A stretch of DNA of 64,000 bases, from NCBI GenBank assembly GCA_963770895.1, contig CAVYRF010000002.1, positions 2,944,001 through 3,008,000 of the forward strand, written 5' to 3'. This DNA is from an uncultured Acidobacteriota bacterium. Lineage in GTDB: Bacteria; Acidobacteriota; Thermoanaerobaculia; Multivoradales; UBA5704. A program made the translations under genes and the position numbers. The notes beneath the pieces are model-generated. The model had not been told where the DNA came from. It was given only the letters and a program-made list of their open reading frames with translations, and did not search any database. Positions 52,005-63,240 of the stretch are shown one piece after another (position 1 is the stretch's first letter; each line of letters starts with the position of its first letter).

Positions 52005-53276
52005 TCAACCCGTCCGCGCGGCAGGGATGGCCGGCGGCGGGGCCGCCGGGGGGATCGGCGTGCTGTCGTCGCCGGCTCCGGTTCCGGCGCCGGCGTCGGC
52101 CGGCTGGGTCGGCACGACGGTGAAGCGCCGGTCCTTGAGCCGCAGGAAGGGCCGTTCGAAATACCGGTACGACAGGAACGCCAGCAGGAACGTCAGGCCG
52201 AACACCACGCCGTAGTAGCCGGCGCAGTAGAGCGCCAGCGGGCGGCCGCGCCACCACGTGGTGTGCTTGAACAGCTGCGAGGCGGCGTACACGGCGGGCA
52301 TGTGCAGCATGTAGATGCCGTAGGAGATCGTCCCCAGGTGGTCCAGGCCGCGGTTGGCGAGCGGCGCCGCCAGGCTGCGCGGATTGGCGGCCACCTCCAG
52401 GATCAGCCAGCAGTACAGGACCACCTGCGCCGCCTCGTAGCCCAGCCAGTTCCAGGGCACGAAGCTGGTCAGGTAGAGGTCGAGCAGCAGGGCGGCCATC
52501 AGCAGCTGCGCCGCCCGGTTGGCGAAGACCGGCAGCCGCATCAGTGCGGCGGGACGCCGGTGCAGCCACCAGGCGCACAGGCCGCCGGCCGCCATGTAGT
52601 GGAACTTGAGCTGTTCGAAAAAGCGCTTGCTCCAGTGCGTCCCCAGGAGGTCGTAGTGGACCAGGCAGAAGCTGGCCAGCGAGACGGCGAAGACCCCGCA
52701 GCAGATGGCGGGCAGCCGCCGGTGCCAGCGTTGCACCACCGGCGCCCACAGCAGGTAAAACTGCTCTTCGACGCCGATCGACCAGCTGGGATTGAGGATG
52801 CCGCCGACCGTGTACAGGCTGTTCATCAGGTTGGGCAGCAGCGCGCCATAGAGGGCCAGGGCGAGCGGCAGGCTGTAGTCGACGCGATAGCGGATGCCCA
52901 GGTGCGGCAGCAGGCCGCTGTAGAAGAAAAGGCCGAAGCCGACGACGGCAAAATAGAGCGGCCAGATGCGGCAGACCCGCCGCAGGTAAAAGCTGCCGAC
53001 CCGGATGGTGCCGCCGGCGCGCAGCTCGTCGAGCAGCAGGTAGGTGATCAGGAAGCCGGACAGCGCGAAGAAAAAGCAGACCGCGAAAGAGCCGCGGTAA
53101 AAGAACGTGCCGCTGTTGGGGTGCGGCAGCCCGACGCTCTCCTGGTTGAGCGGCACGTGGTCCAGGACGACGAAGAACGCCGCCAGGAACCGCAGGCTGT
53201 TCAGGCCCCGGAAGTGGACTTTGTGCGGCGCGGCCGGCTGCTCAGCGCTCGGTGAGCATCTCGGCGAGGTAGCCAC
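52005..53276 (-). CDS. Acyltransferase-3 (OafA-like O-acetyltransferase); start approximate
   Basis: GLNSLRF, FFALSGFLI, RRVCRIWP, WSIGVEEQFY, ISYGIYMLH, ERP. Confidence 0.92.
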   Translation of the reverse strand: MATSPRCSPSAEQPAAPHKVHFRGLNSLRFLAAFFVVLDHVPLNQESVGLPHPNSGTFFYRGSFAVCFFFALSGFLITYLLLDELRAGGTIRVGSFYLRRVCRIWPLYFAVVGFGLFFYSGLLPHLGIRYRVDYSLPLALALYGALLPNLMNSLYTVGGILNPSWSIGVEEQFYLLWAPVVQRWHRRLPAICCGVFAVSLASFCLVHYDLLGTHWSKRFFEQLKFHYMAAGGLCAWWLHRRPAALMRLPVFANRAAQLLMAALLLDLYLTSFVPWNWLGYEAAQVVLYCWLILEVAANPRSLAAPLANRGLDHLGTISYGIYMLHMPAVYAASQLFKHTTWWRGRPLALYCAGYYGVVFGLTFLLAFLSYRYFERPFLRLKDRRFTVVPTQPADAGAGTGAGDDSTPIPPAAPPPAIPAARTG

Positions 53277-54261
53277 CGACCTTTTGCCGCTCGTGGTGCG
53301 CAAAATACCAGTCGATCGTCCGGTGCAGGCCGTCCATGAACTTGACCTGCGGCTGCCAGCCGAGCAGCTGCGCCGCCAGGCGGTTGCTGGCCACCCGATT
53401 GAGCGGCCCGGTCGGCATGTGGGGCAGCAGGCGAATCTCAGCCTGGTGGCCGGTGTAGCGCAGCACTTCCCGCACCGCTTCGATCACCCGCGTGCGCTCC
53501 TCGGTGCCGAGGTTGACCGCCGTGGCGTCGTCGATCTTTTCGGCGGCCAGGATCATGCCGCTCACGATGTCGCCGACGTAGGTCCAGTTGCGGATCTGGG
53601 TGCCGTCGCCCCATACCTCGAAGGGGTCCTGGCGCACGAAGGCGCGGGCGATCATGGCGATGACGGCGTGGTTTTCCACCCCGCGCTCGCCGTAGACGGT
53701 GAAGAAGCGGCACGACGCCGAGCGGAAGCCGAAGTCGCGGTGGTAGGCCGCCAGCGTCATTTCGGTCATCAGCTTGGCCCAGCCGTACATGTTGTCGGCT
53801 TCGTAGGGCGGGCCGGCCATCTCTTCTTTCAGGTACAGCTCCTGCGCCACGTCGGCCTGCAGGTAGTTGGGGTAGATGCAGCCCGACGAGGCGAAGACGA
53901 ACTTTTCCACCCCCGCGTCGTACGCCGCCTTGATCAGCATGCCGTCGAGCGCCAGGTTTTGCGCGCAGGCCGCCTGGTGCAGGTCGACGAAGCCGCGGCC
54001 GCCGTGGATCGCCGCCAGGTGGAAGACCACCTGCATGCCGGCGACCGCCTGCTGGGCGACCCCCGGCTGCAGCAGGTCCGCCTGCATCATCTCGACGTGC
54101 CCGGCGTCGATGTGCTGCCGGATATTGTCCAGGCGCCCGCTCGACAGGTCGTCCACCACCCGAATGCGCCGCGCGCCTTTTGCCAGCAGATGATCGATCA
54201 GGTGCGAGCTGATGAACGAGGCGCCCCCCGTCACCAGGATCGTCTTTGTGCTCCAATCCAT
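53242..54261 (-). CDS. NAD-dependent nucleotide-sugar epimerase/dehydratase
   Basis: VTGGASFISSH, ASSGCIY, YGWAK, WGDGTQIR. Confidence 0.92.
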   Translation of the reverse strand: MDWSTKTILVTGGASFISSHLIDHLLAKGARRIRVVDDLSSGRLDNIRQHIDAGHVEMMQADLLQPGVAQQAVAGMQVVFHLAAIHGGRGFVDLHQAACAQNLALDGMLIKAAYDAGVEKFVFASSGCIYPNYLQADVAQELYLKEEMAGPPYEADNMYGWAKLMTEMTLAAYHRDFGFRSASCRFFTVYGERGVENHAVIAMIARAFVRQDPFEVWGDGTQIRNWTYVGDIVSGMILAAEKIDDATAVNLGTEERTRVIEAVREVLRYTGHQAEIRLLPHMPTGPLNRVASNRLAAQLLGWQPQVKFMDGLHRTIDWYFAHHERQKVGGYLAEMLTER

Positions 54262-54345
54262 CCCCAGGACTCTCCCCGACAGTGTCGCTCCGCAGCCCGT
54301 CCGGTAGCGGTCCGGCGAGCTTAACACGCGGGTAGAATCGCCGGC

Positions 54346-55272
54346 GTGTCCCCCGAGCCCGGCGCGTCGCAGGCCCCGCTGACCGTCAGTACGCTGCTCG
54401 GCCACGCCCAGGTCGACATGGGGCTGCTCTGCCTCGGGAGCCTGCTGGCCTGCTCCCGCCGCCGGATCGCCCTGCGCATTCACGACGACGGGTCGCTCGA
54501 CGCGGCGGACCTGGACCGCCTGGCGGCCGGCCTGGGGAGCCCCGCGGTGGTGCCTCGGCGCCAGGCGGACCAGCGGGCGGAGCAGGCGCTGGCGGCGCGG
54601 CCGGCGACGCGCGCCTTCCGCGCCGCCAATGCGCTGGCCTTGAAGCTGATCGACGCGCCGCTGTGGGCGGACGGCGAGGAGCTGCGGTACTGCGACGCCG
54701 ACGTGCTGTTCCTGCGCCCCTTCGCGCGCCTGTTCGAGCTGCCGCCGGCGGCCGGCGCTCTGTTCATGCGCGATCCGCAGAACGCCTATTCGGTGCGCTC
54801 CTGGCATCTGCTGCGCGAACCCCGGCTGCGCCTGGCCGCGCACGTCAACTCGGGGCTCATCGTCTGCGGCGTTCGCCACCTGGACCTGGACCTGCTGGAG
54901 TGGTACCTGGCGCGCCCCGAGTACCGCTTTGCCCCGGTCTGGATCGAGCAGACCTGCTGGGCCCTGCTCGGCCAGGCGGCCGGTTGCCACCTGCTCGACC
55001 CGCGCGCGATCGCCATCCCCACCGCCGACCGCCAGCCCTGCCGCCGGCACGTGGCGCTCCACTTCGTAAGCCCGGTGCGGGGTCTGTTGCCGGCCTACGC
55101 GCGGCGCCTGGCCGCGGCGCAGGCGGCCGGCGCTGCCGCCGCGGGCGGCACAACGCCCGCCGTCGAGGCCGCCGCTGCCGTCGACGTCGGCACGCGGCCG
55201 GCGCGCCGCCTCACCGCCCGGGCGCTGGCCGCCAGCGAGCTGGTCCGCCGGCTGCGCCGCCTGGGGCGCTGA
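54346..55272 (+). CDS. Putative GT-A glycosyltransferase
   Basis: IHDDGS, YCDADVLF (DxD), NSG, EQT, LHF. Confidence 0.65.
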   Translation: MSPEPGASQAPLTVSTLLGHAQVDMGLLCLGSLLACSRRRIALRIHDDGSLDAADLDRLAAGLGSPAVVPRRQADQRAEQALAARPATRAFRAANALALKLIDAPLWADGEELRYCDADVLFLRPFARLFELPPAAGALFMRDPQNAYSVRSWHLLREPRLRLAAHVNSGLIVCGVRHLDLDLLEWYLARPEYRFAPVWIEQTCWALLGQAAGCHLLDPRAIAIPTADRQPCRRHVALHFVSPVRGLLPAYARRLAAAQAAGAAAAGGTTPAVEAAAAVDVGTRPARRLTARALAASELVRRLRRLGR

Positions 55273-55410
55273 GGTCGGCGGCCCGCGCCGGCGCTGATGC
55301 CGGGTGCCTGGGGCTTGAGACGCTGGCGCCGGCGCCGCCTTGCAGCGCCGCCCAGGGTGTCGAGCGTCCAGCGGATCGCGAGATGTCGAGCGTTTGGCGG
55401 AGCGCCGGCG

Positions 55411-55938
55411 TCAGCCGCGGGCGGCGTCGTGCTGCAGGCGGGCGATGGTGCGGGAGGCTTCTTTGCGCACCGAGTCGGTGTGGCGGCCGATGCGGTTGCC
55501 GATCTCGCGGTAGTTGAGACCGAGCCAGCGCAGGGCCAGGACGCGGTTCTGGTGCACCGACAGGTCCTGGGCGAGGCTTGCCAGGTCCAGGCGACCTGCC
55601 AAATCGGCTTCGCGCGCCGGCGTCGAACCCGCCAGGGCGGTCAGCACCCCCGGATCGACCTGTGCCACATGGCGCTGCTGGTAACGGCCCGCGATATAGG
55701 TGGCGCACCTGCGGCGGACGATGCCGAGAAAATAGAGTTCGGGGCAGCGGATGTCGTGCCACTTGAGCAGCAGGGCCAGGAAAGCATCCTGTAGCAGGTC
55801 CTCCGCATCCTCTGGCGGCACTCCATACGACCGCAGGACGCCGCTCACCCGCCGGCCCGCCTGCGCCACGAACACTTCGAACTCCGCGGCTGGGAAGGAG
55901 GGGGGTGCCGGCGTTGCCTCGTTTGGCAGTGCTGTCAC
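55411..55938 (-). CDS. ECF-type sigma-70 factor
   Basis: Region 2 DAEDLLQDAFL, region 4 LS..Q..VLALR..GLNYREIG.RIG....SV. Confidence 0.82.
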   Translation of the reverse strand: MTALPNEATPAPPSFPAAEFEVFVAQAGRRVSGVLRSYGVPPEDAEDLLQDAFLALLLKWHDIRCPELYFLGIVRRRCATYIAGRYQQRHVAQVDPGVLTALAGSTPAREADLAGRLDLASLAQDLSVHQNRVLALRWLGLNYREIGNRIGRHTDSVRKEASRTIARLQHDAARG

Positions 55939-56094
55939 TAACGGTGGTCTCGTACCGGCTGCAAGATTACCTGAATCGATAATAACTTACCCGATTCGTC
56001 TCCCGAATGTCGACAGCCTTAACTTCCTCTGTTGGGGGCTCCGTGTCGCGGGCCTCGATGGCCAGCGCCTTCCTGCTCCCAGAAAGAGGCTTGT

Positions 56095-56385
56095 ATGACC
56101 GTTCGCCGCCTTGTCGTCGTAATCCTCCTCGCTTTGCTGGCCGTCGTTCCCGCCCAGGCCAAGGGTCAGGGCGCCGCGCCCCATGCCGCTTGGCCGTTGT
56201 GGACCGAGCTGCTCGATCGCGGCAGAGCGTTTTTCGCCCTGCTCGGCAACCCCGTCGATGGCGTCCGCCGCGAGGTGACGCGGCCGGCGCCGGCGGCAAC
56301 GACCACCGCCGCCGGATCTTCCGGCGGCGGCTCGGGCGCACAGGGCGACAGCTCAGGCGCCATGGACCCGGACGGCGCACTGTAG
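56095..56385 (+). CDS. Small secreted peptide precursor ending GDSSGAMDPDGAL
   Basis: AGAAAGAGG RBS, signal peptide ending AQA, amphipathic Trp-rich helix, Gly/Ser/Thr linker, DPDG tail. Confidence 0.75.
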   Translation: MTVRRLVVVILLALLAVVPAQAKGQGAAPHAAWPLWTELLDRGRAFFALLGNPVDGVRREVTRPAPAATTTAAGSSGGGSGAQGDSSGAMDPDGAL

Positions 56386-56409
56386 GTCTGCTGGTTGCAA
56401 TACCGCGGA

Positions 56410-56429
56410 GCGCCGGCGTAAGCCGGCGC
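56410..56429 (+). terminator. GC hairpin after the peptide gene (terminator or stabiliser)
   Basis: GCGCCGGC-GTAA-GCCGGCGC. No strong U tract. Confidence 0.45.
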
Positions 56430-56692
56430 GCTGCCTTGAACCTGGAGTTGCGTTTTGCGCGTCTCCGGCGTCGGCGAGATCCACCGCGGAGCCAGCGCGT
56501 TTCCAATCCCTTCTCGATGGCGGCGGAGGTCGCGGCATCGCGCGCTCGAGCTCTTGCGTACCGTGCCGGTGAGCGTTTTTTAGCCTCATTGGGCGCATTT
56601 TATTTCCTGTCCGGAAAATCGCTGAAAAGCAGACTCTTCTGGTGATGCTGTCGCGCAACGGCGCGATGCTGAAACCGTGGGAGGAGTTCTGC

Positions 56693-58048
56693 ATGGTGGA
56701 TGACGGGCACTTTTCGCCGGAGCTGTTCCGTCGCTTTCTGGCCGGCGACGTCAGCCGCAAGACCGCCGCCCGGATCGTTGGGCACCTGATCCGCGGCTGC
56801 GAGGACTGCGGCGTGCTGGCGCAACGTCTGGCGGCGGAGACCGGAACCTGGCATGGCACGACCGGGGATGCGGCGCCGAGCGAAGACACCGATTACGCAG
56901 CCGCCTTTCGGCGCGCCGTGGAATTCGCCAGCCCCGAGCGCCGGCACGCCGCGCTGGAACGGCTCCGCGGCTGGGGGCAGTGGGCGTCTGTCGAGCCTTT
57001 CTCGCCGGAGCAGCGGATCTCCATCCTGCTGTCGGACGCATCGATGTACACCCGCGGGTTTCATGAGCGCCTGTTGGAAGCAGGCCGCATCTGCCAGCGC
57101 AGCGATCCGGCGAGCGCCGTGGCCGTGTTGGAGCTGGCGGTGATCGTCGCCGAGAAGATTTCTCACGTCGACAACGGTAAGGCGCGTTCCGATCTGCTTG
57201 CCGTGACTTTCGGCCATCTCGCCAACGCCAAGCGCCTGGCCAGCGATTTTGGCGGCGCCCGCGCGGCCTTCAAGGTCGCCTGGGAGCACGCAGGCGACGG
57301 GCACCGTGAAGTCTCCTGCGTCGCCCGCCTGATGACGTTCGAGGCAAGCTTGCTGGCCGATCTGGGGGACTTCGAGACCGCCGAAGCTTCACTGTCGGAG
57401 GCGCTGCTGCTCTATCGCAGCTCGCGGGATCATCATCAGGAGGGCCGCACGCTGGTGAAGATGGCGGCGGTGATCGGTCACGTCTCGCCGGAGCTGGCGC
57501 TGGATCACGTGCGCGATGCCTTGCCGCTCATCGATCGCAAGCTGGAGCCGCGTCTGGAGCTGTGCGCCAAACACAACTTTGCGTGGTTCCTGGCTTCGGC
57601 CGGCAAGGCGGAGGAGGCGCTGACGGTGCTCGACGACACGCGGCCCCTGTACCGCCAGTTTCCCGATCCCTGGACGCAGCTGCGGCTGCACTGGCTGGAA
57701 GGGCGCATCGCCCGCGCGCTCGGCCGGCTGGGCGACGCGGTGCCGATCTTTCAGCGCCTGCAGGAGGCGCTGCAGGTTCGCCAGGCACACCACGAAACGG
57801 TCCTGGTTTCGCTCGACCTTGCCGAGGCCCTGGTCGCCCGCGGCGCCTTCGAGGTGGCGGTGCGCGTGGTGCGGGAAGTGCACCCGGTCATGGCCGGTTG
57901 GCGACTCCACCGCCACCTGCTCGCCGCCTGGCTCCTGCTCCAACAAGCCCTGGAGCAGCGCCAGCTCGATGCCCTGTTCAACAACCTGCAGCTGTACTTC
58001 CGCCGCCACTGGCACCAGCCCGCCGAGTTCACCCACGGCGCCTCCTGA
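56693..58048 (+). CDS. Zinc-anti-sigma-like N-terminus + TPR domain protein
   Basis: GGGAGGAG RBS, H...HLIRGCEDC zinc motif, then TPR-like helical repeats. No signal peptide or TM segment. Confidence 0.8.
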   Translation: MVDDGHFSPELFRRFLAGDVSRKTAARIVGHLIRGCEDCGVLAQRLAAETGTWHGTTGDAAPSEDTDYAAAFRRAVEFASPERRHAALERLRGWGQWASVEPFSPEQRISILLSDASMYTRGFHERLLEAGRICQRSDPASAVAVLELAVIVAEKISHVDNGKARSDLLAVTFGHLANAKRLASDFGGARAAFKVAWEHAGDGHREVSCVARLMTFEASLLADLGDFETAEASLSEALLLYRSSRDHHQEGRTLVKMAAVIGHVSPELALDHVRDALPLIDRKLEPRLELCAKHNFAWFLASAGKAEEALTVLDDTRPLYRQFPDPWTQLRLHWLEGRIARALGRLGDAVPIFQRLQEALQVRQAHHETVLVSLDLAEALVARGAFEVAVRVVREVHPVMAGWRLHRHLLAAWLLLQQALEQRQLDALFNNLQLYFRRHWHQPAEFTHGAS

Positions 58049-58170
58049 TGCTGCCGCCGGCGGTGCCGGCGGGGGGCCGCCGAGGCGAGCAGCGCGGCTG
58101 GCCGCGCGGCCCCCTTCTGGTCTTTTTCACCGTCCCTGCCGAGCCCGAGGCGGTGTTCGTTTCCTGAGCC

Positions 58171-58228
58171 GCAACCATGCGGTTGCGTTTCTGGGGGCCG
58201 CGAGGTAGAGTGGCAACCGGGAGGTTGC
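58171..58228 (+). promoter_or_regulatory. Promoter with two ArsR-type operators
   Basis: GCAACC-N4-GGTTGC at 58171-58186 and 58213-58228, TTGCGT-17-TAGAGT promoter. Confidence 0.75.
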
Positions 58229-58230
58229 TT

Positions 58231-58698
58231 ATGATCGAGTCGACTTCGACGGATGTGATCGAGAGAGAGATCGTGGTGCGGGCGCCGCGGGCGCGGGTGT
58301 GGCGGGCGCTCACGGACGCGGGGGAGTTTGGCAAGTGGTTTCGGGCGGAGATGCGCGAGCCGTTCGTGCCCGGCCAGCGGTCGCAGGGGCGGGTGACGAT
58401 TCCGGGGTGGGACCACCTGACGTTCGAGGTGGTGATCGAACGGATGGAGCCGGAGCGGCTGTTTTCGTGGCGGTGGCATCCCTATCCCTGCGATCCGCAG
58501 CGGGACTACTCGGTGGAGCCGATGACGCTGGTGGTGTTCGAGCTGGATGAGACCGCGGCGGGGACCCGCATCAAGGTGCGCGAATCCGGCTTCGATCAGA
58601 TCCCGGCGGATCGGCGCGACGAGGCGTTCCGCATGAACACGTCAGGCTGGAAGGGGCAGATGGAGAACATCGAACGCTATGTGGACGCCGCCGGTTAG
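58231..58698 (+). CDS. SRPBCC/AHSA1 domain protein
   Basis: IEREIVVRAPRARVWRALTD, FSWRWHP, ESGF, GW. Confidence 0.9.
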   Translation: MIESTSTDVIEREIVVRAPRARVWRALTDAGEFGKWFRAEMREPFVPGQRSQGRVTIPGWDHLTFEVVIERMEPERLFSWRWHPYPCDPQRDYSVEPMTLVVFELDETAAGTRIKVRESGFDQIPADRRDEAFRMNTSGWKGQMENIERYVDAAG

Positions 58699-59038
58699 CC
58701 GCGCCGAGATCGCGGCCCTGCAGCAGGCGGCGCCGGTGTTCGCGGCGCTGGGGGACCAGACGCGGTTGCGCCTGGTGGCGCGGCTGAGCGGCGAAGGGCC
58801 GCTTTCCATTTCGCGGCTGAGCGACAGCGCCGGCGTCACCCGCCAGGCGGTCGCCAAGCACCTGCGCGTGCTGGCCGACGCCGGCCTGGCGCGCGGGCAA
58901 CGCCGCGGCCGTGAGCAGCTGTGGCAGCTGCAGGCCGCGCCGCTCGACGAGGCGCGCCGCTCGCTCGAACGGATCTCGCTACGCTGGGACCAGGCGCTGG
59001 CGCGGCTCAAAGCCGCGCTGGAGCTGGAAGCGGAATGA
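58679..59038 (+). CDS. ArsR/SmtB family regulator
   Basis: FAALGDQTR, VTRQAVAKHLRVL.DAGL, RGRE. Confidence 0.9.
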   Translation: MWTPPVSRAEIAALQQAAPVFAALGDQTRLRLVARLSGEGPLSISRLSDSAGVTRQAVAKHLRVLADAGLARGQRRGREQLWQLQAAPLDEARRSLERISLRWDQALARLKAALELEAE

Positions 59039-59059: not shown

Positions 59060-60211
59060 TCACCAGGGACCGGACCCGGACCCGAAGCCGGCGCTGCGCA
59101 GATCGGCCAGCCAACCGCGATAGGCGTTTTCCAGGCGGTTGACGGCGGGTGCCCAGCGCAGCGACTGGACGCGGCGGTGGCCGGCGCGGGCGATCTTTTC
59201 GCGCAGGGCGGGATTTTCGATCAGGGGTGTCACCGCGTCGTACAGGGCGGAGGTGTGGTGGCCGGCGGCGAGCATCGCCTCTTCGCCGCCCAGCAGGCTG
59301 GCGGCAAAACCGGTGCGGGTGGCGGCCAGGGCGCAGCCGCAGGCCATGGCCTCGGCGGCGGCCAGGCCGAAGCTCTCGTAGCGCGAGGGCAGCAGGGCGA
59401 TGGCAAAGCTCTGGTACAGGTTGCGCAGCGGGCCGTCGCGCTGGACGTGCGGCACGACGGTGATGCGCGGCAGCAGGTCGGCGGCAAAATGGTCGGCGGC
59501 GCGGAAGCTGTCGCCGACGCCGACCAGGGTCAGCCGCCAGGCGGGGTGCTCGCGCAGCAGCGGCGGCAGGTCGCTCGCAAGCAGCGCCGCTCCCTTGCGC
59601 GGCAGCCACGAGCCGCAATAGCCGATGACCGGCGGCCGCGCGAAGTCGACGGCCAGCCCCAGATAGCTGTCGGGCAGCGGGTTGTCGAGCGCCAGCACCC
59701 GCTCCTGCGTCGCATAGCCGCGGTCCAGGACGTAGTTGCGATCGAAGTCGCCGACGGTGACCAGGGCGTCGGCGTCGCGGAAGGCCCGCTCGGCGAGCGG
59801 CATGCGCGGGCCGCCGCGCGGCCGGCGGCGGGGCGCGGCGGCCTTGCGCGCGTCCGCCTCCGCCATGGCTTCGGCGCAGTGGGTTTCGATGCCGTTGGAG
59901 TGGGCGACCAGCAGGAAGCGGCGCCCCGGCAGCCGCGCCAGGGCGGCGATCGCGAGCCACGCTTCGGCGCCATAGAACTCCAGCACGTCGTAGTCGGCGG
60001 CGGCCAGGCGGCGCACGCTCTCGGCCAGCATGCCGAGCGCCTGGCGGTAGCGGATGGCGCGGCGCAGCGGGTACAGCGGTTCGTAGTCGGCGGGGCCGCG
60101 CACGTCCACCTGGTGACCGCGGGCGCGCAGCCCGGCGGCGTAGCCCAGGACCACGTAGCCCGACCCCAGCGACGCGTCCAGCGGCGTGTTGCTGAGGGTC
60201 AGGATGCGCAT
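59060..60211 (-). CDS. GT4 glycosyltransferase
   Basis: MRILTL, RKG, PSRYESFGLAAAEAMACG. Confidence 0.92.
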   Translation of the reverse strand: MRILTLSNTPLDASLGSGYVVLGYAAGLRARGHQVDVRGPADYEPLYPLRRAIRYRQALGMLAESVRRLAAADYDVLEFYGAEAWLAIAALARLPGRRFLLVAHSNGIETHCAEAMAEADARKAAAPRRRPRGGPRMPLAERAFRDADALVTVGDFDRNYVLDRGYATQERVLALDNPLPDSYLGLAVDFARPPVIGYCGSWLPRKGAALLASDLPPLLREHPAWRLTLVGVGDSFRAADHFAADLLPRITVVPHVQRDGPLRNLYQSFAIALLPSRYESFGLAAAEAMACGCALAATRTGFAASLLGGEEAMLAAGHHTSALYDAVTPLIENPALREKIARAGHRRVQSLRWAPAVNRLENAYRGWLADLRSAGFGSGSGPW

Positions 60212-60251
60212 GGCGGCTTGGGTGGGGCGACCGCGGCGGGGGCGGCGGAGC

Positions 60252-61400
60252 TCAACGCCCCGCCCCGCCCGCGAGCGCGAGCACCTGCTGCTCCCAGCTG
60301 GCGGCGATCGCCGCCCACGAGAAGCGGGCGCGATAGCCGTTGGCGTCCAGGTCTTCGAGCGGGCCGGTGGGGACGGCAGACAGACCATCTGACGCCGGCG
60401 ATGGCGCGGTTGGTGGCGACAGGGGCGGCGGCGGAAAGGGTCGCAGGGAGCGCGGAAAGAAGGGCCGCAGGTCCGCGACGCCGCCGGCTTCGGTGGCAAA
60501 GACGGGCATCCCCGACTCCAGCATCTCGTTGAGGTTGAGGCCCCACCCTTCGACGTCGCTGGTGAAGAGGCCGGCATCGTGGCCGGCAAGCAGCGCCGGC
60601 AGCTGGGAGCGGGTGAACGACGGCACCAGCGCCACCCGACCGGAGCGCAGCCAGGCCGCCGGCAGCTCGCGCTCGGGAGCCGTGCCGCAGCCGGCCAGGG
60701 TGAAGCTGTCGCCGCCCGGTCCGGTCAGGCGCTCCGCCATGAAGCGCAGCAGCGGCCGCAGGCCTTTATGGGCGGTCCAGCGGCCCATCCAAAGGTAGCG
60801 CCGGCCGGCGCCCGCCGCCGCGCCGGCCCCGGTCGCGCCGGCACGTCCGCGGCGCACCGCGGCGAGCGCATCCTGCTCGGCCTCTGGCAGGGTGTTCAGG
60901 TAGAGCCCCAGCTTGCCGCGCCAGGCGGGGAAGCGCCGCCGCATCCAGGCCAGCTCCAGGCTCCCCAGGCAGAGGATGGCCCGCGCCCGCCGCCAGCCGC
61001 CGACGATCGCCGCCGCCATCGGCACGCCGAAGGCAGCGTGCACGGCGCCGCGCAGCGGCAGCGGGCGGGCCAGGTCGGCACGCAGGCCGCGCCACAGGTA
61101 GCGCAGCTCCGGCTGGACGCTGCGCACCACCAGGATGCCGTGGCGCGCCAGCTGCCGGCTGGCGGTGAGCGCCGGCGACTCGATGACGTCGAACGGCCCG
61201 TTGGCGGCGGCGTAGGTTTCGATCGCCCGCCGCTGGCGGCGGCGCAGGTTGAACCAGCGCGTATCCGCCGGCAGCGGCTCGGGCGACCAGGCGCGGGCGT
61301 CGTGGCCGCGCGCCGCGAGCGCCGCGGCCAGGCTCATCGCCACCTGGGACGCTCCCAGCTCGGCGGTGAGCGGCGGGTGGCTCACGATCAGGATTCTCAC
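60252..61400 (-). CDS. GT4 glycosyltransferase
   Basis: GTG start MRILIVSH, GRWTAHKG, TSDVEGWGLNLNEMLESG. Confidence 0.9.
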   Translation of the reverse strand: MRILIVSHPPLTAELGASQVAMSLAAALAARGHDARAWSPEPLPADTRWFNLRRRQRRAIETYAAANGPFDVIESPALTASRQLARHGILVVRSVQPELRYLWRGLRADLARPLPLRGAVHAAFGVPMAAAIVGGWRRARAILCLGSLELAWMRRRFPAWRGKLGLYLNTLPEAEQDALAAVRRGRAGATGAGAAAGAGRRYLWMGRWTAHKGLRPLLRFMAERLTGPGGDSFTLAGCGTAPERELPAAWLRSGRVALVPSFTRSQLPALLAGHDAGLFTSDVEGWGLNLNEMLESGMPVFATEAGGVADLRPFFPRSLRPFPPPPLSPPTAPSPASDGLSAVPTGPLEDLDANGYRARFSWAAIAASWEQQVLALAGGAGR

Positions 61401-62188
61401 CGCGCTCCCGCGGCCGGCGCGCCGGGCGGCAGGGCCAGGGTGTTCCAGGCCGGGCTGGTCACCGGCTGGCGCGCGCCGGGCGGCAGCTCTGCGTCGTACA
61501 GGGTGTAGCCGTGCGACGCCAGGAGCTGCGCCACCTGGGCAGCGGTGCCGGAACCGACTTCGCACAGCAGCGTCGGACGCACCTGGGCCAGCAGGCGGGC
61601 GGCGCCGCGCAGGCAGGCCAGCTCGGCACCCTCGACGTCCACCTTGAGCAGGGCCGGGGCGGGGAACGCCTCGAGCAGCCCGTCCAGGGTCACGGTCACC
61701 ACCTTTTGGACGCTGCGGGTGCCGCCCGCCTGACTGCTGCCGGCGACGCTCGCCAGGTGGTTGGCCGCCCTGCCGCGCGCCGCGACGTGGAAGTCCGCGA
61801 CGCCCTGGCGCTCGGCGACGGCGGCGCTCAGCACGTCGATCGGCGCGTGACCCGCGGGGAGCGTCGCGGCCGAACGCCGCAGCAGGGTGGCGAGCCAGCC
61901 ATCGGCTTCGACCGCCAGCACCTCGCCGCCGGCGCCCGCGGCGTGGGAGGCGACGACGGCGAAGAGGCCGACGTTGGCCCCCACGTCCCACACCACGGCC
62001 CCCGGCTGCACCAGCTCGCGCGCCAGGCGCACCAGCAGCGGGTCGACGGCCGCCAGGTCGCGCCGCCAGAACCGCGCCGCCGCGTCGGGCGAAACCCACA
62101 GGGTATGGCCGCCGAGCGCCGCCGGCAGGCGCCGCTTGAGCACGCGGTCGCGGCTCAGCCTTTCGACCAGGTTCCTGATCATGCTCAT
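61397..62188 (-). CDS. FkbM family methyltransferase
   Basis: WDVGANVG, VTLD, LKVDVEGAE. Confidence 0.92.
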   Translation of the reverse strand: MSMIRNLVERLSRDRVLKRRLPAALGGHTLWVSPDAAARFWRRDLAAVDPLLVRLARELVQPGAVVWDVGANVGLFAVVASHAAGAGGEVLAVEADGWLATLLRRSAATLPAGHAPIDVLSAAVAERQGVADFHVAARGRAANHLASVAGSSQAGGTRSVQKVVTVTLDGLLEAFPAPALLKVDVEGAELACLRGAARLLAQVRPTLLCEVGSGTAAQVAQLLASHGYTLYDAELPPGARQPVTSPAWNTLALPPGAPAAGAR

Positions 62189-62208
62189 GGGTCGGTCCGG
62201 CACCAACG

Positions 62209-63240
62209 TCAGCGTGCCGCCCGCGCCGGCGTTGCCCGCGCCGCGCGCGGTGCGCGCAGCACCTGCCAGCCCGGCGCGCGCAGACGTGCAAGCGTCGGAC
62301 CGGGGTCGCGCATGGCCAGAAAGTTAGGCGCTTCGTAGGGCGGCAGCCGCGGCGGCTCGCACGGCGACGACAGCACCAGGCCGCGCAGGTTCCAGCCCAG
62401 GGCGACGACGTGGTAGCCGTGCGCGCACAGCAGGTCGCACAGCGTCTGGCGCAGCGGCCCGTAGGCTTCGTAGATGACGTTGGCGATCGCCCCTGCCGCC
62501 AGGGCTCGCGCGGCGCCGGCCAGCACCTGCGGCTCGCCGCCTTCGACGTCGATCTTCACCATCTTCACCGCCGGCGTGTCCGCGGCCGCCGCGGCCAGCG
62601 GCTCGGCCGCGGTTGGAGTCGCGGTCGCCGGCACACCCGCCGGCGCCGCCATGGCCGCCATGGCCGCCATGGCCGCCGACGGCGCCAACGCCGCCAGCGT
62701 CGCGTCGAGCGTCGTCACCGGGATGCGCAGCGCGCCCTCCTGATCGGTGAGGCGGGCGGTGCCCTGGTTGGCGGCGAAATAGGTGCCGCAATCCAGGAAT
62801 CCATCGCCCGCGCGTTCGCCCAGGGCGCTGGCCACGACTTCGATCGGCGCCAGGCTGGGGCAGCGCTCCTGGAACGCCGCCACGTTGTCGCGCAGGCGCC
62901 GGCAGACGTCCGGATGCGGCTCGAAGGCCAGCACCCTGCCGGCGGCGCCCGCCCGCAGCGCCATGATGCTGGTCATGTAGCCCAGGTTGGCGCCGGCGTC
63001 GATCGCCACGTCGCCGGGCTCGATCAGCCGCCACAGGGTTTCGCTCACCGCCAGGTCGTACAGACCCAGCCGCCAGATGGCGCCGCCGACGTCTTCGCCG
63101 GCGTCGACCGCCAGCGGCAGCCCCCAGGGCAGCTCGACCACCACCTTCCGGGGTGGCGCGCCGGTCAGCACCTGGCGCAGCCGCCGCGCCGCCTGGCCGG
63201 GGCGCCACAGGTAGTGCGGCTTGAGGATGCCGGCGATCAC
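62209..63240 (-). CDS. FkbM family methyltransferase
   Basis: IDAGANLG, AFEP, TTLD, KIDVEGGE. GTG start overlaps the upstream stop. Confidence 0.92.
   Translation of the reverse strand: MIAGILKPHYLWRPGQAARRLRQVLTGAPPRKVVVELPWGLPLAVDAGEDVGGAIWRLGLYDLAVSETLWRLIEPGDVAIDAGANLGYMTSIMALRAGAAGRVLAFEPHPDVCRRLRDNVAAFQERCPSLAPIEVVASALGERAGDGFLDCGTYFAANQGTARLTDQEGALRIPVTTLDATLAALAPSAAMAAMAAMAAPAGVPATATPTAAEPLAAAAADTPAVKMVKIDVEGGEPQVLAGAARALAAGAIANVIYEAYGPLRQTLCDLLCAHGYHVVALGWNLRGLVLSSPCEPPRLPPYEAPNFLAMRDPGPTLARLRAPGWQVLRAPRAARATPARAAR

Follow-up and report, generated by a model that had tools for sequence, protein, structure and literature searches.

A candidate peptide-signalling cassette of a DPxG propeptide, a zinc-motif TPR receptor and an ECF sigma factor in Thermoanaerobaculia

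In a 64,000-nucleotide stretch of the genome of an uncultured Acidobacteriota bacterium (this whole stretch is referred to below as the window), we analysed a cassette built of genes for an extracytoplasmic function (ECF) sigma factor, a small propeptide with a terminal DPxG motif, and a soluble protein, here called the receptor, in which a zinc-binding anti-sigma (ZAS)-like domain precedes a superhelix of tetratricopeptide repeats (TPR). The core module of this cassette is the pair of propeptide and receptor genes, with the sigma gene mostly not adjoining. We consider it rather probable that the whole constitutes a peptide-receptor signalling system with a sigma-factor output, acting through the full mechanism set out in the Discussion. 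In silico this is supported by the linkage of the genes, the presence of the motif in multiple copies, a structural model with the motif in the groove of the receptor, covariation between receptor and motif, homology of the N-terminal domain to ZAS domains, and the clade and gene order of the linked sigma factors. A preliminary description of this DNA had proposed a circuit resembling the RRNPP systems, and that reading is supported by the computational tests run.

The three genes named in that description proved real, the sigma gene diverging from the open reading frame (ORF) for the 96-aa peptide, and the features of the cassette are as follows.

55411-55938, minus strand: ECF (group IV) sigma factor, 175 aa (Pfam Sigma70_r2, NCBIfam TIGR02937, clade placement)
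55939-56094, no strand assigned: divergent intergenic region between sigma and propeptide genes, promoters presumed (sequence inspection)
56095-56385, plus strand: propeptide gene, 96 aa and stop (ORF, homologs adjoining receptors, codon-position pattern)
56095-56160, plus strand: signal-peptide-like N-terminus, residues 1-22, ending A-Q-A (hydropathy heuristic only)
56191-56244, plus strand: Trp-bearing amphipathic helix region, residues 33-50 (Trp/Leu-rich stretch in aligned precursors)
56347-56376, plus strand: conserved C-terminal unit DSSGAMDPDG, residues 85-94, predicted ligand (motif table, complex model)
56693-58048, plus strand: soluble receptor, 451 aa, ZAS-like N-domain and TPR superhelix (84 homologs, AlphaFold2 (AF2) model, hydropathy)
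56693-56992, plus strand: anti-sigma-like N-domain, residues 1-100 (invariant residues, hhalign, ChrR matches)
56708-56809, plus strand: candidate zinc ligands H6, H31, C36 and C39 (invariance in 26/26 sequences)
56993-58045, plus strand: TPR superhelix with predicted peptide groove (Foldseek, complex-model interface, K256 covariation)

Results

The propeptide and receptor genes form a conserved pair

Linkage of the two genes was assessed in 160 loci assembled from named metagenome-assembled genomes (MAGs), other genomes and metagenome contigs, 12 of which are zf-HC2 loci of the window's own genome and not receptor loci. Of the receptor frames in this set, 118 begin with the N-domain; upstream sequence of 350 nt or more is available for 109 of these. 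A small ORF with a hydrophobic start and ending in the motif lies within 1 kb of 90 of these 109 receptors (Thermoanaerobaculia genomes and metagenomes), and a narrower search, for a motif-ending frame at most 450 nt upstream on the same strand, finds one at 79/109. The motif ORF was placed upstream on the same strand in 80 cases, upstream and divergent in 8, and downstream in 4; this tally, which sums to 92, takes in 2 loci with less than 350 nt of upstream sequence. Among the 19 misses are variants that the filter excluded, such as a 36-aa form without a hydrophobic start (L012) and a divergent 31-aa form with D-P-S-G and 3 more residues at its end (L041, L042), as well as a signal-peptide ORF with a different C-terminus (L057).

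The own genome, which comprises 8.16 Mb in three contigs with about 70% G+C, could be scanned in the opposite direction, as had been suggested, for ORFs with a signal peptide and a DPxG end. The six-frame scan of the 8.16-Mb genome gave twelve stop-to-stop segments of at least 40 aa whose C-terminus is DP[ND]G followed by 0-4 residues; 8 of the 12 have a signal-peptide-like start, and all 8 adjoin a receptor paralog. One close receptor paralog of this genome (L002, C1:659307-660662) carries a single in-frame TAG and has no motif ORF nearby, and is probably a pseudogene.

The longest frame of the small ORF in the window spans 56032-56385, and the ATG at 56095 yields the 96-aa product. Its N-terminus consists of a basic n-region, a hydrophobic core (mean Kyte-Doolittle hydropathy of 2.26 over the 19 residues 1-19) and an A-Q-A site. 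Next come an amphipathic stretch that bears Trp and a long linker of Pro/Ala/Thr/Gly/Ser, and the C-terminus is DSSGAMDPDGAL. All the features first attributed to this secreted-type peptide (signal, amphipathic helix, flexible linker, terminal DSSGAMDPDGAL) are thus present, the signal being identified heuristically, by the in-house rule of hydropathy and charge that was used throughout in place of a dedicated predictor. A signal-peptide-like start occurs in all 29 rows of the precursor alignment (A3), and the aligned precursors share a comparable Trp/Leu-rich stretch after it; the propeptide has no match in Pfam or NCBIfam. In 11/11 ortholog pairs of the peptide ORF, codon position 3 differs most and position 2 least, which shows it to be a coding frame. 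That the small ORF might be a chance frame in GC-rich DNA was considered, and is ruled out by its conservation together with this codon-position pattern.

Two further kinds of precursor were noticed. The short ones of 27-36 aa (L011:1588-1692, L014:3188-3268, L012:3728-3865) keep the amphipathic stretch and the D-P-D-G end. A third type, of about 31 aa and divergent from the receptor (L004:3600-3692 in the own genome, L119, L123, L129, L137 and L041), has a hydrophobic start and a short Thr/Pro/Asp stretch, and ends in G-G-G-x-D-P-N-G (D-P-S-G in L041).

The leaders of the peptide genes in other loci also show some regularity. A conserved box resembling GCACTGTA is found about 85 nt 5' of the peptide start (L015:3495-3602, L016:3497-3604 and 17 more loci of alignment A4), and it is followed by a long imperfect hairpin of -21 to -33 kcal/mol in each of the 19 leaders, the sequence of which varies between loci of the main ortholog group of peptide genes while the pairing is kept. 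With 78% of cells paired (44-59% in slid controls), a covariation score of 0.41 (0.12-0.23 in controls) and changes on both sides in 10/15 pairs, these counts lean toward the structure, because it was derived from the same sequences: each was folded singly, and RNAalifold on the leader alignment gave just 4 pairs. The hairpin has no Rfam match in the 5' leaders of six related loci, and was not seen in the leader of the window's own peptide gene.

The C-terminal motif is conserved and often repeated

From 139 instances in 85 distinct precursors, the consensus of the repeated unit is [D/K][S/G][R/G/S/H]G[T/G/S]M-D-P-[D/N]-G, with Asp in 71 and Asn in 66 instances at the variable place. Position 1 of the motif is Asp in 136/139, Pro is present in 139/139 and Gly in 137/139; as the search pattern fixed Pro and limited positions 1 and 4 to D/N and G/D, the informative results are the co-occurrence in 90/109 loci and the conserved flanking residues rather than the counts of core residues. 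On these two grounds the C-terminal motif of the preliminary description can be regarded as conserved. Precursors with one copy number 37, with two 42 and with three 6 (n=85), and four copies were found at one sigma-centred locus (L198). The final Gly is the C-terminal residue in 43/85 precursors, and in the precursors of some paralogs two Cys flank the motif. The likeness of the D-P-N-G string to the NDPNG motif of beta-fructosidases was considered and rejected, NDPNG belonging to unrelated enzymes.

The motif is modelled in the groove of a TPR superhelix

The longest frame of the receptor gene is 56642-58048; the start used by its homologs is the Met at 56693, from which the protein has 451 aa. 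The soluble nature and TPR-like repeats first ascribed to this protein are borne out by a Pfam TPR_12 match of 45.3 bits (cut-off 30.1) and by a peak 19-residue hydropathy of 1.53, so that no membrane helix is seen. The AF2 model, with a predicted local distance difference test (pLDDT) score of 87.8, is all-helical, and consists of three short helices (9-50), a disordered stretch (52-65) and a superhelix up to residue 439. Foldseek matched it to the TPR domains of LGN/Pins, solved with bound peptides (E 5e-6, template modelling (TM) score 0.49), and to RapF (3ulq; E 8e-5, TM 0.51, 395 columns), as well as to RapJ with peptide (4gyo), RapI, pLS20 Rap and phi105 Rap. At TM ~0.5, the likeness of the modelled receptor is that of TPR superhelices in general.

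When the receptor was modelled together with precursor residues 24-96 (a 73-residue chain), with an own alignment for each, the complex reached a median score of 0.68 (runs 0.74, 0.68 and 0.67) versus 0.00 for all three controls. This clears the mark for the score, which was reached, in the calibration of the tool, by 58/80 solved complexes and 2/110 mismatched pairs. The runs have at least 31% of contacts in common, with a partner pLDDT of 40-46, and the confident interface of the peptide is confined to residues 85-95, the conserved unit; no confident receptor contact of the Trp-bearing amphipathic region appears in the complex model. On the receptor side, the groove contacts include N178, R252, K256, E285, R287, H294, R331 and W334, and interface residues are invariant in the family (H294, W334, G262, L290) or nearly so (R252, E285, R287, F299, R331, L335). 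The model thus supports the placement of the motif peptide in the TPR groove. An AlphaFold-type model of TPR protein and peptide had been proposed as a check of the circuit, and its outcome is in line with what was expected (0.68 vs 0.00 for the best control).

Receptor residue 256 covaries with the motif

In the complex model, receptor residue 256 touches Asp91 and Asp93 of the peptide. Within a set of 36 receptor-precursor pairs, 34 combine Lys256 with D-P-D-G as the last copy, or Gln, Asn or Thr with D-P-N-G, and the two exceptions each have one matching copy elsewhere in the precursor. Over 75 distinct pairs, the combinations of residue 256 and motif residue are K/D 29, K/E 1, K/N 4, Q/N 30 and Q/D 3, with 8 more in which N, R or T stands with motif N. 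Both traits change at least 15 times each on the tree. Taking 12 independent pairs (starred branches), the motif follows residue 256 in 7.7 on average, opposes it in 0 and is unchanged in 4.3 (sign test, median p 0.008, range 0.008-0.03). Residue 256 therefore appears, from these alignments, to read Asp versus Asn of the peptide, and the co-evolution of receptor and peptide that was to be looked for is found at this position, none of the 12 pairs being opposed.

The N-terminal domain resembles zinc anti-sigma domains

The H...HxxxxCxxC motif noticed at the N-terminus of the receptor was confirmed, in the form H-x4-C-x2-C, which is not the canonical one. Residues H6, H31, C36 and C39 are invariant in 22/22 aligned homologs and 26/26 N-terminal pieces, with the spacing H-x24-H-x4-C-x2-C, which exceeds the canonical ZAS H-x3-C-x2-C by one residue; the latter was seen by eye in some more distant paralogs. 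A candidate for the fourth ligand, which in ZAS domains is a His or Cys some 25 residues upstream of the His, is the invariant H6, 25 residues before H31, and H6 aligns with the first-ligand region of ChrR.

Comparison by hhalign, made without a shuffled control, of the 26 N-domains with the own genome's 16 canonical zf-HC2 domains gave 44 aligned columns at Prob 85.8 and P 5.4e-6, the alignment containing one inserted residue between His and Cys. The anti-sigma domain of ChrR was matched, with residues 1-72 aligned in each of the two proteins (E 1.1 and 0.086), and ChrR was the sole non-TPR, non-designed match in the PDB sequence searches. The Pfam zf-HC2 profile was matched below threshold in 9/26 relatives (best E 0.005). 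The hhalign and ChrR matches support the assignment of the N-domain as a variant zinc anti-sigma domain.

The linked sigma factors belong to one clade

By sequence, the product of 55411-55938 is an ECF (group IV) sigma factor, that is, one with sigma-70 regions 2 and 4 only and a length of about 170-200 aa: it matches Pfam Sigma70_r2 with 32.7 bits (cut-off 24), Sigma70_r4_2 with 16.6 bits, under its cut-off, and NCBIfam sigma70-ECF TIGR02937 with 45.3 bits (cut-off 42.9). All 5 linked sigma factors tested fall in one clade (10/41 sigma factors, support 98/95), and that of the window is inside it. No sigma factor of this clade neighbours any of the genome's 16 canonical zf-HC2 proteins.

A match to the window's sigma factor at E 1e-12 or better exists in 40/61 genomes of the order. 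A sigma-centred set was composed of 30 loci, each containing the best sigma homolog, one per genome of the order, the window included. A receptor occurs within 1.5 kb at 19/30 of these loci; the sigma gene lies directly upstream of it on the same strand in 16/19, downstream within arrays in 2, and is divergent in 1, the window. The frames of sigma factor and receptor overlap by 4 nt at the own paralog C2:5716538-5719086 and by 8 nt in L055. Motif ORFs were detected by pattern at 7/30 loci, and 4 more loci have signal-peptide ORFs that end in close variants. In the sigma-centred cases inspected the motif ORFs lie upstream of the sigma gene, which makes peptide, sigma, receptor on one strand the usual arrangement; the divergent layout of the window, in which sigma and receptor genes are not co-transcribed, is the exception (1/19).

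In some places three or four sigma factors of the linked clade stand in tandem, with receptors between them (G266:C103:11856-16793; G401:C2:393016-397546; G408:C30:33675-38220; own genome C2:5718550-5721342). After one sigma gene of this clade in the own genome (C1:797943-798548), the next gene encodes a 567-aa protein of another kind (C1:798573-800276) and not a ZAS-TPR receptor.

The family is multiplied in the own genome and exchanges its output domain

Homologs of the receptor (84 found) come from Thermoanaerobaculia and other Acidobacteriota MAGs and are annotated, if at all, as TPR or hypothetical proteins; the ESM Atlas holds only unnamed or TPR-named acidobacterial clusters. Among 401 Acidobacteriota genomes, with four candidates per genome scored, a match at E 1e-30 or better was found in 7, all in the window's order. 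The own genome has 68 matches to the receptor family profile, and in a local search the TPR part occurs in 69 ORFs and the N-domain in 19.

In 5 of the 7 longer TPR paralogs scanned, an XRE-type helix-turn-helix (HTH) replaces the ZAS-like domain (C2:495518-497521, C2:500317-502347, C2:502963-504867, C2:5556812-5559316 and C2:3839736-3842021; L161-L164, L167). Four of the five match HTH_3 in two stretches, at E 7e-13 to 2e-17, and the fifth matches it in one stretch at E 5e-5. These paralogs sit in clusters of several paralogs, and the one at C2:495518-497521 adjoins a signal-peptide precursor with two Cys-bracketed motifs. Two distant database matches (P0080, P0082) are annotated as XRE HTH regulators. 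The joining of the TPR sensor to either a DNA-binding or a ZAS-like domain suits a transcription-related role of the latter.

Surroundings of the cassette

The sigma and propeptide genes are separated by 156 nt, and the gap between propeptide and receptor genes is 307 nt. The divergent intergenic region contains no match to a sigma-70-type consensus; the consensus scan gave 0 sites of that type and 3 that resemble terminators, with 2.0 expected; no shared ECF-type -35/-10 pair was recognized by eye upstream of the peptide and sigma genes of sigma-linked loci, and Rfam has no match, at E up to 1, in window positions 55300-58300. The genes immediately 3' of the receptor encode an AHSA1/SRPBCC-family protein (58177-58698) and an ArsR/SmtB-type regulator (58679-59038), with frames overlapping by 20 nt. 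The cassette is surrounded by polysaccharide-type genes (window 52005-55062 and 59060-62291), namely Acyl_transf_3, an NAD-dependent epimerase/dehydratase, two GT4 glycosyltransferases and an FkbM methyltransferase. On a related MAG contig, about 2 kb downstream of the receptor, the minus strand matches the Rfam group II intron (RF00029; L015:7517-7591) with 43 bits, the gathering score being 40.

Discussion

The explanation of these findings that we consider rather probable is the following. A precursor that carries a signal peptide of the Sec type, followed by an amphipathic helix, a flexible linker and one to three ten-residue units ending in M-D-P-[D/N]-G would be exported and cut to a short peptide, which would then re-enter the cytoplasm and bind to the concave groove of the TPR superhelix. 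The zinc-type N-domain of three to four helices would act as a variant anti-sigma domain that holds an ECF sigma factor of the one dedicated clade, and, by analogy to Rap, binding of the peptide might rearrange this domain against the TPR part, with the sigma factor being freed. Where the peptide gene heads the sigma operon, autoinduction would follow. Export, the cleavage sites, re-import, binding of zinc and of the sigma factor, the direction of the effect, the regulon and any sharing of the peptide between cells are parts that we infer.

Several observations weigh against this proposal. If a diderm exports the peptide and keeps its receptor in the cytoplasm, an import route is needed, and the own genome encodes 2 OppA-type binding proteins with no specific tie to the cassette. 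The 27-aa (L011, L014) and 36-aa (L012) precursors are devoid of a signal peptide, so Sec export is not universal in the family. The core motif is nearly identical among paralogs within one genome, which speaks against the private channels that RRNPP systems typically have. The complex model leaned on own alignments and has an uncertain fold of the partner, and the solved TPR-peptide complexes may guide it. The covariation in 12 pairs was derived from a FastTree tree, in which the starred branches are less reliable, and a smaller, careful IQ-TREE set contains 5 independent pairs, with p of 0.06-0.25.

Other such points concern the sigma factor and the N-domain. The co-occurrence of all three genes had been expected, and it is borne out by the pairing of peptide and receptor (90/109) and by the sigma-centred loci (receptor at 19/30, motif ORF or close variant at 11/30); in the receptor-centred set a sigma gene is adjacent to only 10/118 receptors, in one case (L030) convergent and of another clade. 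The same is true for 3 of about 50 strong receptor paralogs in the own genome, and the closest homologs of the window's receptor are mostly without a neighbouring sigma gene; an anti-sigma role of most copies would therefore need a sigma factor in trans. A tblastn search with the window's sigma factor found one in 5/52 receptor loci, and a local sigma hidden Markov model (HMM) added no adjacent one, so that this scarcity is real and not an effect of sensitivity. The canonical H-x3-C-x2-C is absent from the window's protein and from 26/26 aligned relatives, and the window's N-domain has no match to Pfam zf-HC2 (PF13490). In a fold search with the model of this domain (pLDDT 62), the anti-sigma factors RslA (Z 5.1), MucA (Z 4.9) and RsiW (Z 4.3) scored within the noise range, many unrelated helical proteins having equal Z.

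The alternative that survives best, and that we regard as unlikely, is that the receptor binds the motif on unexported or unprocessed precursor in the cytoplasm, and so reports the export state or the precursor level instead of an external peptide. This would fit a receptor with neither a signal peptide nor a membrane helix, the precursors L011, L014 and L012, which start without a signal peptide, and the binding of the motif within a 73-residue chain in the model; import across two membranes would not be needed. A coupling of secretion to transcription is also the task of TPR chaperones of type III secretion. However, most precursors start like signal peptides (all 29 rows of alignment A3), the two Cys flanking the motif in several paralogs suit an oxidising compartment, and motifs in multiple copies are typical of precursors cut into several released peptides.

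It is also conceivable, but decidedly unlikely, that the TPR part does bind the peptide while the N-domain has another partner or role, the adjacency of the sigma gene being regulatory (the sigma factor transcribing the cassette) and not physical. The adjacency at 10/118 receptors, with the one convergent sigma gene of another clade, would be understandable in such a case, as would the missing Pfam zf-HC2 match and H-x4-C spacing of the window's protein and the fold-search scores of its N-domain within the noise range. Against this stand the profile match to the 16 canonical ZAS domains (P 5.4e-6), the ChrR anti-sigma domain as the only non-TPR match in PDB sequence searches, and the confinement of the linked sigma factors to one clade. 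Furthermore, the receptor gene directly follows the sigma gene on the same strand in 16/19 cases, frames overlap by 4-8 nt at two loci, and the order of sigma then receptor is the arrangement of the canonical sigma/anti-sigma pairs of this genome.

That the peptide is itself the product, as a secreted effector or a precursor resembling those of bacteriocins or ribosomally synthesized and post-translationally modified peptides (RiPPs), with the TPR protein as its chaperone, scaffold or immunity/regulatory factor, is very improbable: the TPR protein binds the core motif in the model and multi-copy core motifs are also known in precursors of ribosomal natural products, but no conserved modifying enzyme, protease or exporter was seen beside the two-gene module (by eye, not counted), flanking genes vary from locus to locus, both alternative N-domains (ZAS-like, XRE HTH) are transcription-related, and the covariation of contacts is like that of receptor-ligand pairs.

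If the cassette is indeed a peptide-receptor system acting on a sigma factor, its output would be new, namely direct control of an ECF sigma factor by a soluble anti-sigma factor with a peptide-binding sensor. As a conserved and much-duplicated cassette in Thermoanaerobaculia, it would extend the RRNPP logic to a diderm soil phylum that has hardly been studied experimentally. The ligand can be predicted from the sequence, as a unit of 7-10 residues ending in MDP[D/N]G, and together with residue 256 it offers a ready test of specificity and a small orthogonal switch of sigma factor, anti-sigma factor and peptide for synthetic biology. Passages in PMC7826278 consider soluble anti-sigma factors probably under-detected in the ECF field, and the receptor family would be a concrete case of this. 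More tentatively, and with some doubt, one may imagine the first family of gene-encoded peptide pheromones of a diderm phylum, in which the receptor is the anti-sigma factor and the peptide switches the sigma factor directly, and in which dozens of receptors per genome with ZAS or HTH outputs, and precursors with 1-4 motif copies, form a communication network of soil Acidobacteriota.

Comparison with known systems

The preliminary description knew of no account of this architecture, and a full-text literature search, with most subscription journals outside its reach, likewise returned no description of such a system. In the passages concerned, PMC10075063 places peptide systems with cytoplasmic TPR receptors in Bacillota, and PMC9765709 similarly treats them as a hallmark of Bacillota, with their phages and plasmids. 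A role of TPR as a regulatory module of ECF sigma factors is described in parts of PMC7826278, for the C-terminal extension of ECF42 and for a FecR-like TPR protein associated with ECF267. There, the TPR is fused to the sigma factor itself (ECF42) or the putative anti-sigma factor is FecR-like (ECF267), and in the passages of PMC7826278 concerned there is no word of a peptide ligand or of a fusion of ZAS and TPR.

A sigma factor controlled through a peptide motif has a counterpart in another diderm, in the DegS/RseA-sigmaE system of E. coli, which senses C-terminal peptides of outer-membrane proteins; the proposed sensor here is a cytoplasmic TPR domain fused to an anti-sigma-like domain. In the E. 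coli system, a C-terminal peptide motif of exported proteins controls the release of the sigma factor, by means of a periplasmic PDZ protease as the sensor, an anti-sigma factor that is bound to the membrane and release through proteolysis.

A similar construction is seen in ChrR-sigmaE of Rhodobacter sphaeroides, ChrR being a soluble protein whose sensor domain comes after a zinc anti-sigma domain at the N-terminus. Receptor and ChrR can be aligned at the first ligand and at the H...C-x2-C block, and the spacing from His to His is equal, but the matches are weak and the window's receptor has one extra residue between His31 and the first Cys. The sensor domain of ChrR is cupin-like, that of the receptor a TPR superhelix for which a peptide ligand is predicted.

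The XRE HTH paralogs of the own genome recall PlcR-PapR, NprR-NprX, Rgg-SHP, ComR-ComS and AimR-AimP, and C2:495518-497521 has the classic layout of an HTH-TPR gene with a propeptide gene. These paralogs differ from the HTH-TPR systems in having two tandem HTH and no detectable sequence relation to RRNPP proteins, and the window's own receptor has no HTH. The family profile matches 36 PDB sequences when E is allowed up to 1, and Rap, NprR, PlcR, PrgX, Rgg and AimR are all missing from them.

With regard to the RRNPP-like circuit that was originally put forward, a cytoplasmic receptor with a TPR superhelix, an adjacent propeptide gene and, in silico, binding in the groove were found; membership by sequence homology, and an N-terminal HTH or Rap-type effector domain in the window's receptor, were not. 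By analogy, the cassette would work like an RRNPP system yet falls outside the family by sequence and by effector domain. The closest working analogue, in our comparison, would be Rap-Phr. Differences from it include the type of the repeats (TPR_12, KLC and LGN), a ZAS-like zinc motif in the N-domain in place of the Rap bundle or an HTH, an ECF sigma factor instead of a response regulator as the proposed target, a diderm acidobacterium as the host, and a core motif common to the paralogs of one genome. In common with Rap-Phr, the cassette has a cytoplasmic receptor made of an N-terminal helical bundle and a TPR superhelix, an adjoining small gene for an exported precursor (export being judged here by the heuristic), and a proposed action by protein-protein contact and not by binding to DNA. 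Propeptides with multiple copies of the peptide are likewise reported, in passages of PMC9765709 and PMC11343458, for the Rap, NprR, PlcR and AimR systems.

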